NCBI GenBank assembly: GCA_964196115.1
Contig: CAXMRQ010000082.1
Coordinates: 1-57,465, forward strand
Reading direction: 5' to 3'
Length of the DNA stretch: 57,465 nt
DNA from: an uncultured Gammaproteobacteria bacterium
GTDB taxonomy: Bacteria > Pseudomonadota > Gammaproteobacteria > GCA-001735895
The notes beneath the pieces are model-generated. The model ran no database searches and was not told where the DNA came from. It worked only from the letters and a program-made list of their open reading frames with translations. Within the stretch, counting starts at the first letter, position 1. Every line of letters begins with the position of its first letter. The translations under genes were made by a program, and so were the position numbers. Shown piece by piece: positions 3,961-50,040 of the stretch.

Positions 3961-4638
3961 TCAATGCATGGTAGTTCTAACTTCTATTTTTTCCTCACCA
4001 TCAGGAACAGCGCTACCCGCTTCCGCCCGGGCTTCTTCGATGTCGGTGTTTTCGGGGGCTTCTTCGAGTGCATCGACATTAAGGACTGGTTCCCTGGCGT
4101 CGGCCAAGTCGCCGGGATTGCCTGATGACCTCGAAGCATCGGTTTTAGCGGTGTCAAACTCCGAACTTACAGAGGCTGGTTCACCGGCATTAGCCTCGGT
4201 GAATGGCTCGGCATGCTCGTCTACCGTTTCCACAGGCGTTGCCTGCGTCACCCCCTGTTCGACAAACGAATCATCATCAACCTTATTCGTGACATTTGTT
4301 TCATCGTCTAGAGTTATCGATACCATGCCCTGATGTTGTTCCAGAAGACTGGTAAAAGTCTTGCTATCACCCAGGGATTGCGCGCCCTCCGCCAGATGCT
4401 GATAAACCTTGACATAGTTTTGCGTCAAATTGTTCACTAGTTCCGAGGTTTTGTTGAAGTGTTGATTGACATTGGACTTGTAACTGTCCAGTTCCTCCCG
4501 GGTCACCTCCAGTTCAGTTTTGACTTTAGCGGCCTGTTTTACCGATGGTGCGAGCAGCCGATAAGCCAGTGCGCCGATCATTGCACCGGCGACCAGTGAG
4601 ATAATGCCAATTTGCCAAACCGAGTATACGTGTTCCAT
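3961..4638 (-). CDS. YhcB/ZapG (DUF1043) family membrane protein with long acidic tail
   Basis: N-terminal TM, coiled coil, V-x-QHF-x-KTSELVNNLTQNYVKVYQHLAEGA motif. Confidence 0.8.
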   Translation of the reverse strand: MEHVYSVWQIGIISLVAGAMIGALAYRLLAPSVKQAAKVKTELEVTREELDSYKSNVNQHFNKTSELVNNLTQNYVKVYQHLAEGAQSLGDSKTFTSLLEQHQGMVSITLDDETNVTNKVDDDSFVEQGVTQATPVETVDEHAEPFTEANAGEPASVSSEFDTAKTDASRSSGNPGDLADAREPVLNVDALEEAPENTDIEEARAEAGSAVPDGEEKIEVRTTMH

Positions 4639-6477: not shown

Positions 6478-7170
6478 TTAGGGATTCCAATAGACATCAA
6501 CTGGCACCCGATCCTGATGCAGGACTACCCGTATCGGTAGTTCATCAACAGGCCCGGCCGTTAATGCATCTTGATAGATTCGCCATTTTTTCGCGCCTGC
6601 AATATGTAGCAGGATACGCCGACTATCGAGTATCGCGTTAGCCGTTAAAGTCATCCGATCATGGGGTGCAGTGAGCGGAAAAATGGGCAGGCAGAATTCT
6701 GTCGCATTGTTATCCAGAGCAGATCCCGCAACACCAGGAAACAGCGAGGCGGTGTGACCGTCCTCACCCATGCCAAGAATCATAATATCAAAGGGACGCG
6801 GCATGTTTTCCATAGCTTTGTTACAAACCTTTTGACCCTCAAGTACATCGCTTCCGGCGTTTTTAAGCGGGACAAAGTTGGCCGCGGCCGCTTCGCCCTG
6901 GAGGAGGGTTTCTCGAACCATTGCCTCGTTACTGTCTTTCGACGAGGGATCTACCCACCGCTCATCGGCCAGCGTAATAGTGATTTGCGCCCAGGGAAGT
7001 GCGCGCTGGGCGAGATTTTCCAGCAACGGACGCGGTGTGTTGCCACCGGAAAGCACCAGGCTGGCGCGACCCCGATCTGCTACTGCTTTACTGAGTTCGA
7101 CCTCGATATAGGCAGATAATCTGGCATTAAGCTTCTCTGCGGTTGGTTCGCGATATTCTGTAATACTCAT
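6478..7170 (-). CDS. pgl: 6-phosphogluconolactonase (DevB type)
   Basis: LSGGNTP, DERWV, LGMGEDGHTASLFP. Confidence 0.95.
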   Translation of the reverse strand: MSITEYREPTAEKLNARLSAYIEVELSKAVADRGRASLVLSGGNTPRPLLENLAQRALPWAQITITLADERWVDPSSKDSNEAMVRETLLQGEAAAANFVPLKNAGSDVLEGQKVCNKAMENMPRPFDIMILGMGEDGHTASLFPGVAGSALDNNATEFCLPIFPLTAPHDRMTLTANAILDSRRILLHIAGAKKWRIYQDALTAGPVDELPIRVVLHQDRVPVDVYWNP

Positions 7171-7270
7171 TCATTTTCCTTTGTTTAGTTATGATCCTGG
7201 AGGTTCATTTCGTGATTCTATCGATATCAATATTTAATGCAGAGAATACCATTTGTAAATTAACGCTGCC

Positions 7271-7504
7271 TAGGAGGCTGACCGAGAATAGGGGTCGTAG
7301 TGATATGTACAGGATGTACGGTAATAGAACACCAACAGTAGGTGCCTCCAGGCAATGCAGGAGCAATTGTCGAGGGAAAGCTGGATTTAGGCAGATTTTT
7401 TCATTTTTGGGGCAAATAGTTACTCATATTCAGCGATAAAATGGGGAAATCTGCCTAGATCCAGCTTTTCCGCAGTAGGCCTTCTATTCTCGGTCAGCCT
7501 CCTA
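7271..7504. mobile_element. MITE family 1, subfamily A, copy carrying the 70-bp GGA cassette
   Basis: 24-bp perfect inverted repeat GCCTAGGAGGCTGACCGAGAATAG (7268-7291 / 7484-7507), TA/CTAG at both ends, long internal palindrome, homologous copies at 33773 and 40717. Confidence 0.88.
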
Positions 7505-23959: not shown

Positions 23960-24217
23960 TTGAACCTGGGAAACGCAGTTGGATCACGAAAGTCCACACA
24001 CCAAAAGTAGGCGCTTTTAAGCGAGCTCTTGACGCACCGGAGTGCCGCATCACTAGAAAACCAAATAACTTCTCATCACCAATAAGGTGGCTACGAATTA
24101 TTTGACAGGCACTATGCGCCAATATGACGTGCATGGATGCACTAATGCAGTGTTTGCAGGATGCAAAGGAGCTGCCTTACACGTCTTTTTCGCGCCCAAC
24201 TGCGTTTCCCAGTTTAA
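23960..24217. mobile_element. MITE family 2 with GGA hairpins and one 23-bp micro-unit
   Basis: 17-bp perfect inverted repeat CTGGGAAACGCAGTTGG (23966-23982 / 24196-24212), extendable imperfectly to TTGAA/TTAA ends; non-coding; between convergent genes. Confidence 0.8.
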
Positions 24218-32797: not shown

Positions 32798-33836
32798 TTC
32801 TTGTCACACACTCGGTCTGGAATATAGCTGAACTTATCGCAGTCAAAAGACTCCCGGTATCGGCACGGGAACTTCCGGCGAGATCCAGGGCGGTGCCATG
32901 ATCTACTGATGTGCGGATGATTGGTAACCCGAGCGTGGTATTGATCGCACGGTGAAATCCTGCGTGTTTCAATACTGGTAGTCCCTGGTCGTGATACATT
33001 GCCAGAACCGCATCGGCATCGATCAAATTTTGTGGCGTGAATACAGTATCAGCCGGAAATGGGCCGCTGATATTCAGACCTTTTTGTTGCATAATTCCTA
33101 TAGCCGGGGATATTTGCTCGATCTCTTCGCGCCCCAGGTATCCATTCTCCCCTGCATGGGGGTTGAGACCGCAGACTTTTATATGTGGTCGCCGCAATCC
33201 GAATTTTAATTGCAGGTCATGGTTTAGAATATCGAGGATCTGAATAATCAATTCAGTGGTGATTGCTTCGGCTACCTGCCGTAGGGGTAAATGCGTGGTC
33301 GCGAGCGCGACTCTGAGTTTGTCTGCAGCCAATAACATGACCGGTTTGACGCCACCACAGATATCAGCTAAAAATTCGGTGTGACCACTAAATGCTATAC
33401 CTGCCTGGTTAATGATGTCCTTTTGCACCGGAGCGGTAACCATTGCATCGAATTCCTTCTCCAGACAACCGTTACAAGCGCGTTTTAATGTTTCAAGCAC
33501 ATAGCTGGCGTTCTCCTGATCCAGGATTCCGGCTTTACAGGGCGTTGCTAGCGGTATATGTAATATTTCAAGCTGAGCTTTTCCAGAGGACCTGGCCCCG
33601 GGCTGGTATTCGACAAAATTAAGGTCGGGATTTAATGCCTTGTTGCGTGACTCTATTAATTCACGATCCCCGATTATTATCAGTCTCGCGTTATAGCTAC
33701 AGGCATCAATAGCGGCAATAATATCTGGCCCGATGCCTGCCGGTTCGCCTGACGTTATTGCGATGCAGGGGCAAGGAGGCTGACCGAGAATAGGGGTCGT
33801 AGCGAGGGAAAGCTGGTTTGAGGTAGGTTTTTTCAT
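32781..33836 (-). CDS. pdxA: 4-hydroxythreonine-4-phosphate dehydrogenase; first 21 codons derive from a MITE
   Basis: GEPAGIGP, GHTEFLA, GLNPHAGE, MYHDQGL, RTSVDHGTA. Confidence 0.96.
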   Translation of the reverse strand: MKKPTSNQLSLATTPILGQPPCPCIAITSGEPAGIGPDIIAAIDACSYNARLIIIGDRELIESRNKALNPDLNFVEYQPGARSSGKAQLEILHIPLATPCKAGILDQENASYVLETLKRACNGCLEKEFDAMVTAPVQKDIINQAGIAFSGHTEFLADICGGVKPVMLLAADKLRVALATTHLPLRQVAEAITTELIIQILDILNHDLQLKFGLRRPHIKVCGLNPHAGENGYLGREEIEQISPAIGIMQQKGLNISGPFPADTVFTPQNLIDADAVLAMYHDQGLPVLKHAGFHRAINTTLGLPIIRTSVDHGTALDLAGSSRADTGSLLTAISSAIFQTECVTRNATSS

Positions 33837-33936
33837 TTTTGAGGCAAAAAGTTACTCATATTTAACGATAAAATGGAGAAATCTGCCCAAATCCAGCTTT
33901 TCCGCAGTAGACCTTCTATTCTTGGTCAGCCTCCTA
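33773..33936. mobile_element. MITE family 1, subfamily A, empty copy (164 bp, no GGA cassette)
   Basis: Ends AGGAGGCTGACCGAGAATAG / CTATTCTTGGTCAGCCTCCTA; colinear with 7271-7504 except for a clean 70-bp gap. Confidence 0.9.
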
Positions 33937-40716: not shown

Positions 40717-40977
40717 CAGGAGTCTGTCGGACTTAGGTGGTCGTCACGATATGTACAGGATGTACGGTAGTAGAACACCAACAGTAGGCGCTTTTAGGCG
40801 CCAACAGTAGGTGCCCTTAGGCAATGCAGGAGCAATTGTCGAGGGAAAGACCGGTTTGAGTCAGATTTTGAGTTCTTTTAAGGAAAATAGTAGTTCTATT
40901 TGACGAAAAAGAACTCAAAATATGGCCAAATCCGGCTTTTCCGCAGCAGACCACAGCCTAAGTCCGACAGGCTCCTA
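40717..40977. mobile_element. MITE family 1, subfamily B, copy carrying the 93-bp GGA cassette
   Basis: 23-bp inverted repeat with 2 mismatches (GCCAGGAGTCTGTCGGACTTAGG / CCTAAGTCCGACAGGCTCCTAGC); same internal architecture as subfamily A. Confidence 0.88.
40776..40821 (+). repeat. Two tandem 23-bp micro-units
   Basis: CACCAACAGTAGGCGCTTTTAGG then CGCCAACAGTAGGTGCCCTTAGG; single copies at 7330-7352 and 23999-24021. Confidence 0.9.
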
Positions 40978-49529: not shown

Positions 49530-50040
49530 ATTTGCCAGGGTTTCGCACACTAAGTCTCTCATTACTCCGTAGTTAACTCAGGAGTAAGTGCGCGAGTCTC
49601 TTTTCTCTGCAGCGAGAAAAGTAACCAAAAGCGCCGCCCCGAACAAGCCCTTATTTCGTCAAAATAGCGCCCATATCAGGGTCGGCCCACACGCGCTCCC
49701 GGCACGAGCGGGCCTAAATTGGCATCCCTGCCAATTTACCCTAATCTGAACACTATTTTGCCGAGGGCTTGAAAGGGGGAAAGAAGAAAAACTCACTGTC
49801 ATACCGGACTTGATCCGGTATCCATTGAAAAGCGACCTCCGGGGCCTGCAGCAAATGCTATCCAATGGATTCCGGCTCGGAGGCCGGAATGACGGTTCAT
49901 TTCCAGGGAGCCGTAGGCCACACGATTGGGCTGCCTTTTTCTTGGTTACTTCTTTTGGGCAAGCAAAAGAAGCAACTCGCGCACTTACTCATAAATAACT
50001 ACAGAGTAAAGAGAGGCTTAGTGTGCGAAACCCGGCAAAT
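49530..50040. mobile_element. ~510-bp nested palindromic element with 66-68-bp terminal inverted arms
   Basis: 49530-49597 is the imperfect reverse complement of 49975-50040; inner hairpin domain 49637-49778; nested REP doublet; non-coding, between convergent genes. Confidence 0.8.
49797..49894. repeat. Inverted REP doublet (GTC-tagged type)
   Basis: TGTCATACCGGACTTGATCCGGTATCCATTG ... CAATGGATTCCGGCTCGGAGGCCGGAATGACG. Confidence 0.8.

Follow-up and report, generated by a model that had tools for sequence, protein, structure and literature searches.

Hairpin cassettes in the MITEs of an uncultivated gammaproteobacterium: a 47-nt mini-element that probably inserts independently of its hosts

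The window analyzed here is a 57,465-nt stretch of DNA, contig C82 in the genome assembly of an uncultivated gammaproteobacterium whose nearest named records are unclassified metagenome-assembled genomes (MAGs) at ~75% nucleotide identity. It carries miniature transposable elements with inverted repeats (MITEs) of two subfamilies, A and B2, and at one internal position of these MITEs, here called site 2, a small cassette of hairpins with GGA in their loops is either present or absent. A filled copy of subfamily A lies at 7272-7503 (232 bp, with the 20-nt terminal inverted repeat AGGAGGCTGACCGAGAATAG) and holds a 70-bp cassette at 7304-7373, inserted at ..GTGA^GGG, where the caret marks the insertion point. 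A filled copy of subfamily B2 at 40718-40976 (259 bp, terminal inverted repeat AGGAGTCTGTCGGACTTAGG) holds a 93-bp cassette at 40750-40842, and in both MITEs the insertion point is found just left of (C)GAGGGAAAG. The subfamily A copy at 33774-33935 (162 bp) is empty: its site 2, at 33805/33806, reads ..GTAGCGA^GGGAAAG, the uninterrupted junction being GTCGTAG|CGAGGGAAAG. All of these features are on the forward strand. An earlier note on this DNA had placed cassettes of 70 and 93 bp at the equivalent position of A and B hosts and had described the latter A copy as lacking the cassette exactly; reading and alignment agree with the former, and the empty junction could be read directly. The intervals given there, 7301-7370 and 40747-40839, denote the same cassettes, since the CGA/TGA...CGA repeat leaves the frame ambiguous by 3 nt. 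That repeat, taken as the boundary of the cassette, is present but is not a target duplication: judged by the insertion rules of other copies (..(C/T)GA^GGGAAAG), it is made of the host target ..CGA^GGG and the element's own terminal CGA.

Each cassette is composite. The first consists of a 47-nt mini-element with two hairpins and one 23-nt unit, and the second of the same mini-element and two units (40778-40800 and 40801-40823), which accounts for the lengths observed (47+23 = 70; 47+46 = 93); the 23-nt gap in their alignment is one unit. The cassette had been taken for a single tiny element; the second-tier insertion stands, and it is made up of two elements, the 47-nt mini-element and the 22-23-nt unit. 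In the first cassette, hairpin 1 (GTAC-AGGAT-GTAC) occupies 7307-7319, the nested GTAG-headed unit CCAACAGTAGGTGCCTCCAGGCA sits at CA^AT between the two hairpins (7332-7354), and hairpin 2 (GGCAATGC-AGGA-GC(A)ATTGTC) spans 7351-7371, the terminal CGA of the element ending at 7373, all on the forward strand. Outside the units, pairwise alignment of the two cassettes shows 2 differences in 47 positions (T/C at position 1, A/G at position 24), as the earlier note had counted, and the two filled hosts are identical in 118 of 182 aligned columns (~65%). The single unit of the first cassette is slightly more diverged from the second unit of the other (CCTCC vs CCCTT). Two diagnostic cassette motifs were each matched twice in the window, against 0.00 matches expected from 100 shuffles. 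Folding returned the two loop-GGA hairpins that had been proposed, GTAC-AGGAT-GTAC and CAATGC-AGGA-GC(A)ATTG, the latter with one bulged A. Neither terminal inverted repeats nor a target-site duplication were seen in the cassette, and the host MITEs have 20-nt inverted ends. Folding energies of the whole cassettes are modest (z = -1.3 and -3.7); each MITE is predicted to fold into one long hairpin (z = -8.8 and, for 7272-7503, -10.3). In these predicted folds site 2 falls between the outer and inner stems of the long hairpin, where pairing is interrupted and partly lacking, and the cassette of a filled MITE emerges from there as side branches.

MITE copies were then tabulated across the assembly (3.58 Mb, 229 contigs). 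A scan for two types of inverted ends, with up to 4 mismatches, yielded 228 matches. Of these, 56 ends found no partner, many of them at the ends of contigs, and the others formed 86 pairs, 80 of type B and 6 of type A. The base length of the MITE is 162-164 bp, and longer copies carry optional modules at four sites: a 22-23-nt unit at site 1 (after TTAGGTA), the cassette of the window at site 2, a paralogous cassette in opposite orientation at site 3 (the central loop), and another paralogous cassette at site 4 (after CCGCAGTA). In a third subfamily, B1, 47 copies have an intact core; of these, 9 are filled at site 1, 27 at site 2, 12 at site 3 and 16 at site 4, and nearly all combinations occur. 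The census of site 2 was anchored on the right-hand host sequence (69 anchors, 7 of them unrelated). The class of one truncated B2 copy was changed, and the A copy of the window, missed by the anchor, was added by hand. Site 2 proved to be filled in 35 and empty in 28 of the 63 scorable copies from the three host subfamilies, namely 2 filled and 4 empty in A, 29 and 17 in B1 (one empty copy with a variant flank), and 4 and 7 in B2. Junctions are identical in 35/35 filled copies; the genome-wide tabulation that the earlier note had suggested has thus given constant junctions and not the variable boundaries that it had also envisaged.

Matches to the left arm of the cassette (up to 2 mismatches) lie directly behind the host site-2 flank in 47 of 48 cases. 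Ten of these 47 arms belong to short core-less forms that run through units into the right arm of the site-4 cassette and look like deletions through recombination between units. Such forms measure 128-216 bp and, between two inverted ends, consist of the site-2 left arm, one to four units and then the site-4 right arm; examples are C118:5563-5690, C35:6928-7077 and C73:6480-6695. The tetranucleotides that flank the MITE copies resemble CTAG (CTAG, CCAG, CTGG), which we take to suggest an IS5-type parent. Further repeat islands of other families, with three stretches of multi-copy 14-mers, are present in the window at 49582-49990.

Without its units the cassette is a 47-48-nt core with a fixed order of parts: hairpin 1, whose stem varies and whose loop is C-A(N)GGAU-G; the GTAG-containing linker GGTAGTAGAACA; hairpin 2, which has GC-AGGA-GC at its apex; and YCGA at the 3' end. 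The context constant among copies comprises the loop C-A(N)GGA(T/C)-G, the linker (G)GTAG(A/T)AG(A/G)GCAA and then TGCAGGAGCAATTG(C/T)CGA, the GTAG standing 3-6 nt upstream of hairpin 2. A total of 120 copies was collected, of which 81 were distinct with the canonical linker, and 56 were aligned for covariation after 25 had been dropped by eye (7 without a recognizable hairpin 1 in a 33-nt window, 6 length variants and 12 near-duplicates). Compensatory changes are seen in these 56 copies at each of the four pairs in the stem of hairpin 1, with 98.5% of cells paired; pair 10-19, for example, is AU in 22, CG in 21 and GC in 12 copies. In hairpin 2, pair 31-49 covaries as well (GC 45, AU 9, GU 2); the last 20 nt are uninformative on covariation because they were fixed by the search pattern. 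The observed covariation score was reached by 0/500 shuffles, and slid partners were paired in only 16-44%.

The family is not confined to this organism. The 3' motif TGCAGGAGCAATTGYCGAGG was found in at least 118 stretches in a collection with one genome per prokaryote species. Among the matches listed, the named records are Methylobacter, Methylotuvimicrobium, Methylovulum, Methylomonas, Endozoicomonas, Bermanella, Marinomonas, Kangiella, Sedimenticola, Ectothiorhodospiraceae, Spongiihabitans and Lysobacterales, joined by many unclassified gammaproteobacterial MAGs and one Gemmatimonadales MAG. A 17-nt degenerate form occurs in 46, 51, 27, 25 and 6 copies in five complete genomes, against 0 for a reversed control. 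In an even sample of Gammaproteobacteria the 3' motif was present in 48 of 401 genomes and 41 of 320 genera (control 0), the richest genome being that of the window, with 65 copies. Rfam 15 gave 0 matches in the window at gathering scores, and nothing at the element positions of three loci with E up to 1. No searchable paper prints the element motifs and none relevant was found on nested REP, MITE or CsrA repeats, subscription journals lying outside the coverage. The mini-element family is apparently undescribed as well as widespread in Gammaproteobacteria. Contig C52 of the genome of the window contains, at 4050-4330, a head-to-tail array of three to four mini-elements that includes two additional micro-modules: the linker holds TCGAGTCAGGAACAGAGACCGAGA, and hairpin 1 holds CGGTCCGG(C/T)G(G/T)(T/C)CCGG.

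Copies outside the window's MITEs define the ends of the element exactly. Many sit at TGCA^GGAGCA, within the hairpin-2 loop of another copy; several others occupy the unit's loop, at CTTTA^GGCG. A 47-nt copy (CGACTGC...TTGCCGA) occupies CCACA^GGGTGG in two Endozoicomonas species (L059:720-772, L105:5152-5204), where, according to Rfam intron matches and translations, it interrupts GSPQ|GGVISPLLAN of a group II intron reverse transcriptase and shifts the frame. IS91-like transposase genes of three genomes hold a mini-element at the same place, ..RQ|..|VLSFP..; one copy is 51 nt long and in frame (L107:7758-7810), one carries a stop codon (L080) and one is degenerate (L087). From these cases an insertion rule can be read, with an A before the element (GCA, CGA, GTA or TTA), YCGA at its end and G(G) after it. 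Neither mini-elements nor units inserted in genes, where the ends are exact, are accompanied by a target duplication. In Methylotuvimicrobium a different MITE, with ends CAGCAATTCCCAG, is filled or empty for a 97-nt nested cassette pair in its apical loop, GGCGGCAGCT^CCCTGCTGCC (L045:6338-6598 vs L200-L202). The outer cassette of that pair ends with hairpin 2 and not with CGA, which indicates that end sequences vary between subfamilies. This MITE has ~50-60 copies per genome, and one copy (L203) nests deeper, including a 23-nt unit. The site-specific insertion into MITEs that had been claimed for the cassette accordingly holds for this subfamily, with 47/48 arms at one site, but not for the family, whose members also enter apparently single-stranded loops in general, and genes.

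The unit of 22-23 nt, CCAACAGTAGGCGCTTT(T)AGGCG, forms a repeat in its own right, separate from the mini-element. Its structure is ..CAGTAGGCGCTTT(T)AGGCGCC.., with a GGCGC/GCGCC stem immediately after GTAG. A 15-nt seed with up to 2 mismatches matched the genome 179 times, 74 times in paired MITEs and 105 times elsewhere; ~10 of the outside matches seem to be chance matches in genes, and among the rest no fewer than three other repeat families are represented, one of them the third MITE family of the window (23969-24209). In every case with an empty counterpart, the unit is inserted between two A's (TA^AT, CA^AT, CA^AA, TA^AC), and it occupies NA^AN in four MITE sites and three other repeat families. 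Between the hairpins of the site-2 cassette, at CA^AT, zero to two units are found, and up to four in the core-less short forms. A tyrosine-recombinase gene on contig C1 holds a 22-nt unit at GGTA^AAGG (L204:677-698), between RIEQG and GKKDRLVALP, which splits the Phage_integrase domain (PF00589) over two frames (profile positions 3-67 and 54-167). The broken recombinase is part of an IS91-like element with recombinase and Y2_Tnp/Zn_Tnp_IS91 transposase. On sequence grounds, this copy is a plain frame-breaking insertion, and the unit inserts by itself. In the window a further unit, CCAAAAGTAGGCGCTTTTAAGCG, lies at CA^A (24001-24023, forward strand) in an unrelated third MITE family (23969-24209, terminal inverted repeat CTGGGAAACGCAGTTGG) that has dozens of copies genome-wide. 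This third family also holds small GGAT-loop hairpins, GTGCATGGATGCAC and TTTGCAGGATGCAAA.

Cassettes and hosts differ strongly in divergence. In the 29 filled B1 copies the cassette arms diverge by 0.015 per site, and aligned host flanks (30 nt left, 62 nt right) diverge by 0.082 among filled copies, 0.083 among empties and 0.084 between the two classes. Between subfamilies, ungapped counts give 0.45-0.52 differences per site for hosts and 0.013-0.030 for cassettes. The claim that the cassette is younger than its hosts is supported by these values and by the near-identical cassettes that subfamilies share. On a tree of 46 B1 hosts the filled/empty state changes 16 times, compared with 14.1 ± 1.5 with shuffled labels, so that the state is scattered over the host tree and cassette presence does not track B1 host phylogeny. 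Neither congruence with the hosts nor variable boundaries, the two outcomes that the earlier note had named as refuting its reading, was observed. Cassette variants, with 0, 1 or 2 units and with GGAG or GGACG in hairpin 2, are common to several host subfamilies. In nine of nine B-like MITE copies from eight other species of the genus, a set whose choice favored empties, site 2 is empty; these congeners also have cassettes with units, in non-MITE contexts. The nearest congener has the intergenic region orthologous to that of the B2 copy without the MITE, at 79 nt vs 323 nt.

Public contigs, considered among the matches listed, bear on the first MITE of the window; the runs carrying the sequence are labelled as marine sediment, sediment and ice metagenomes. 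In two runs position 7260 is joined to 7501 with 7 other letters, and since these contigs skip 7261-7500, the MITE is absent in related populations. A low-depth contig of run X8 runs from 7003-7300, which is unique left flank, straight to 7371 and 60 letters beyond. It skips exactly 7301-7370 and is possibly the orthologous empty site; a chimeric path through the repeat also fits. Runs X2 and X6 skip the same interval with only 19 letters on the short side and may represent other A-type copies.

Two explanations keep the cassette tied to its host. If it had been an ancestral part of the MITE, preserved by selection in some copies and lost elsewhere by precise deletion between the CGA repeats, its much better conservation relative to the host would follow, and CGA...CGA could indeed mediate such a loss. 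This account is largely refuted, and we regard it as very improbable: the empty form CGT..CGAGG(G/A)A is the one found in the congener copies (9/9 from 8 species, with the choice favoring empties), it pairs with the opposite arm of the MITE hairpin in the predicted fold, cassette variants are common to host subfamilies, the state is scattered on the host tree, and the family is found far outside MITEs. Alternatively, a cassette could have entered a MITE once and then been spread by gene conversion or homologous recombination between MITE copies. The 47/48 copies at one MITE site would be expected from such homing, as would the separate paralogous cassette types at sites 3 and 4; modules do recombine, since in the ten core-less forms the left arm of site 2 leads, by way of the units, into the right arm of site 4, and in B1 the filling of sites 2 and 4 is associated (13 copies with both, 14 with site 2 only, 3 with site 4 only, 17 with neither). 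The host sequence adjoining the cassette speaks otherwise. In filled A and B2 copies, host bases specific to the subfamily come as close as 1-3 nt to the left edge of the cassette (B2 ..GTCAC|GA) and 10 nt to its right edge. Conversion tracts carrying it into A and B2 hosts would have to be bounded by shared stretches of no more than 7 nt to its left and ~10 nt to its right; no co-converted host bases were seen, which argues against homologous gene conversion. Relatives also occur in unrelated hosts and in genes, where a homologous donor flank does not exist, and homing by recombination is in our judgement unlikely.

It could also be supposed that the mosaics are chimeric repeat paths of a short-read metagenome assembly, given its 229 contigs, many of which end in these repeats, and the lack of a public contig that spans the MITE among the matches listed. 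Of the explanations considered we give this one the least credence. The same filled and empty states are present in finished chromosomes from a different genus, just two states at site 2 are seen among the 63 copies, whose flanks are unique on either side, and independent runs reproduce the cassette sequence at high depth.

We consider it probable that the cassette is an independently inserted member of the mini-element family, and the data support reading it as mobile, nested and younger than its hosts. A non-autonomous mini-element of 47-48 nt, with or without units, would insert precisely into the unpaired MITE stretch ..CGA^GGGAAAG, and would have done so repeatedly after subfamilies A, B1 and B2 had diverged. 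One may envisage a protein that acts in trans, reads the GGA-loop hairpins where the nucleic acid (most likely DNA) is single-stranded, and cuts and joins at A^G in exposed loops in a manner resembling HUH/Y1 enzymes. The analogy to HUH (Y1) transposition derives from the absence of inverted ends and of a duplication, the subterminal hairpins, and a target that resembles the 3' end of the element; a single-stranded, HUH-like route remains a tentative suggestion drawn from that analogy. The analysis itself shows selection on structure, precise loop-directed insertion, self-nesting and tandem arrays of a non-autonomous element.

Y1_Tnp genes were surveyed at 33 loci in six genomes, 6 loci in the genome of the window and 27 in five others. 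A HUH/RAYT gene flanked by the cassette, as the earlier note had envisaged, was not found among them. The loci of the genome of the window are flanked by other low-copy inverted repeats; two of these RAYT-like genes, L001 (C225:13690-14510) and L005 (C91), are bracketed by repeats of their own, GGGGTCAGTCTCGATTGA... and GGGGTCTAATCTTGACTTAACATATT..., unrelated to cassette or unit. The scan of flanks returned two weak non-canonical matches only (L006 and L136). A canonical element lies ~230 bp upstream of the Y1_Tnp gene at L156, inside a separate host hairpin, and was missed by the scan because of two mismatches in its right arm. A link to RAYT/IS200 was rejected, as no association with Y1_Tnp genes was evident in the genome of the window and five others. 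The Y2 transposase of the IS91-like element was likewise set aside, its recombinase being a victim of the unit and not an obvious mobilizer, a judgement made without comparison of element ends.

Several points weigh against independent insertion and are gathered here. No movement event was seen, and no mobilizing gene was found, the scan of the ~1.5-kb flanks of the 33 Y1_Tnp loci having returned no canonical cassette or unit motif and having missed the one element near L156. The near-confinement of the cassette to one MITE site (47/48) also fits spread with or between MITE copies, and its low divergence may partly reflect selection or gene conversion, the family being conserved across orders. 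Resolution of the B1 host tree is poor, 32 of its 42 inner branches being open. The nine congener MITEs were picked from matches that start just right of site 2, a choice that favors empties, and the dropping of 25 copies by eye leans towards structure. The assembly has 229 contigs, and both the mosaic copies and the joint in X8 could be repeat chimeras; no public contig among the matches listed spans the whole MITE, which leaves the arrangement at 7272-7503 without independent confirmation.

The conserved loops raise the question of a role in RNA. The motif CANGGANG is found in the hairpin-1 loop of 50 of the 56 distinct copies, and a distance of 24-25 nt separates the GGA motifs of the two loops. 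Passages of PMC6849547 on CsrA/Rsm binding give the consensus as CANGGANG and RUACARGGAUGU. The loops match this consensus and are putative binding sites, to be treated as a lead, in a genome with two CsrA genes. The hairpins might then be a functional RNA module, a portable CsrA/Rsm site or raw material for a Csr sponge, conserved through selection on the host, which would be compatible with mobility. The motif frequency, the GGA spacing and the two CsrA genes favor this idea, as do the tandem arrays on contig C52 and the concentration of the family in Gammaproteobacteria. We nevertheless think it improbable, for no Rfam family matches and equal conservation of the loops would be expected if a transposase read them. 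Orientation relative to neighboring genes is also only weakly and not significantly biased: by crude open reading frame (ORF) calls, 31 of 120 copies are co-directional with both neighbors and 19 antisense to both, and copies inside ORFs are 9 sense and 9 antisense. Strand plotted against chromosome position in five complete genomes, judged by eye and not set against origin or terminus, showed no obvious switch. A doubtful extension of both ideas is a self-targeting mini-transposon, in which the GGA-loop hairpins would serve as enzyme handle and as target (A^GGA). Its loops being near-perfect matches to CsrA/Rsm sites, with the spacing for one dimer, spread would scatter Csr sites and sponge-like arrays across gammaproteobacterial transcriptomes, and the element would act as a mobile source of post-transcriptional wiring and perhaps of Csr sponge RNAs; with A^GGA in exposed loops as the insertion target, the element could pile up in itself and in any hairpin.

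Among elements this small (47 and 22 nt), without inverted ends or duplications, the cyanobacterial small dispersed repeats (SDRs) have so far been an isolated case. The family described here offers a covarying two-hairpin anatomy, exact insertion ends, clear empty and filled sites and a distribution over dozens of genera that includes the genetically tractable methanotroph Methylotuvimicrobium buryatense 5G, so the question of what moves very small repeats becomes testable. MITEs can serve as platforms on which insertions of a second and third tier gather, with as many as four sites involved, and such nested insertions inflate and diversify intergenic hairpins and fragment assemblies. Should CsrA bind the GGA loops, the family would in addition act as a regulatory module that is mobile.

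Comparison with known systems places these repeats closest to several kinds of very small elements. The SDRs of Nostoc punctiforme, published in 2008, are reportedly 21-27 nt long, make precise insertions in larger repeats or hairpins, and are said to lack inverted ends and target duplications. The 22-23-nt unit falls in the SDR size range and shares precise insertion in repeats, and the nesting of the mini-element resembles SDR behavior. The likeness is one of size and behavior, and it bridges Cyanobacteria and Gammaproteobacteria; the 47-nt element is larger and has a defined two-hairpin anatomy with GGA loops. The reference list of PMC3116915 carries Elhai et al. 2008, Genome Res 18:1484, as reference 43. 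The GTAG-tagged REP superfamily, with REP/REPIN sequences and RAYT (Y1 HUH) transposases, is treated in passages of PMC3116915 and PMC3733652, and section 7 of the latter notes that REPs are regularly nested in longer palindromes. In common with REPs, the unit has a GTAG head and a short GC-rich hairpin, the mini-element has GTAG upstream of hairpin 2, and both share high copy number, occasional copies inside genes and nesting in palindromes. Unlike REPINs, units are single or in direct tandems of two to four, with no inverted doublets seen; 0/6 Y1 genes in the genome of the window are flanked by unit or cassette, and the mini-element combines two different hairpins with conserved loops.

Miniature derivatives of IS200/IS605, the palindrome-associated transposable elements (PATEs), are likewise not known to have inverted ends or target duplications. 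The mini-element shares with PATEs the subterminal hairpins at both ends, and its host sequence ..CGA^ resembles its own end ..CGA, which recalls PATE insertion 3' of a short fixed sequence; it is, however, far smaller (47 nt), and no single fixed target tetranucleotide is evident, left flanks ending in A and right flanks beginning with G(G). Beyond A^G its target is loosely defined and seems to be a loop of single-stranded nucleic acid. A full-length relative with the same ends and a TnpA was not found near the 33 Y1_Tnp loci, where gene-separated arms were not searched exhaustively. The pneumococcal BOX element, boxA-boxB(n)-boxC, is a modular mosaic repeat. The cassette resembles BOX and the BIME of E. 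coli in being modular, with a variable number of a short internal unit and several motif types per intergenic element, and differs in that its modules are separate insertions, with empty sites, nesting and unrelated hosts. BIMEs are defined in a passage of PMC3733652, which also describes Rickettsia palindromic elements (RPEs) as small palindromic repeats inside protein-coding genes, sometimes in frame. The 51-nt copy at L107, in frame inside a gene, recalls RPEs; these are longer and not known to be nested in MITEs, whereas the mini-element is mostly intergenic and several of its gene insertions break the frame. With sponge RNAs of the CsrB/RsmZ type, as presented in passages of PMC6849547, the mini-element shares loop GGA, the match to CANGGANG and two sites 24-25 nt apart; it differs in being dispersed and mobile-looking, not a single regulated small RNA gene, and in having no Rfam match. 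Very small nested repeats are a known kind of element; among them the mini-element is widely distributed, and its anatomy is unusually clear.

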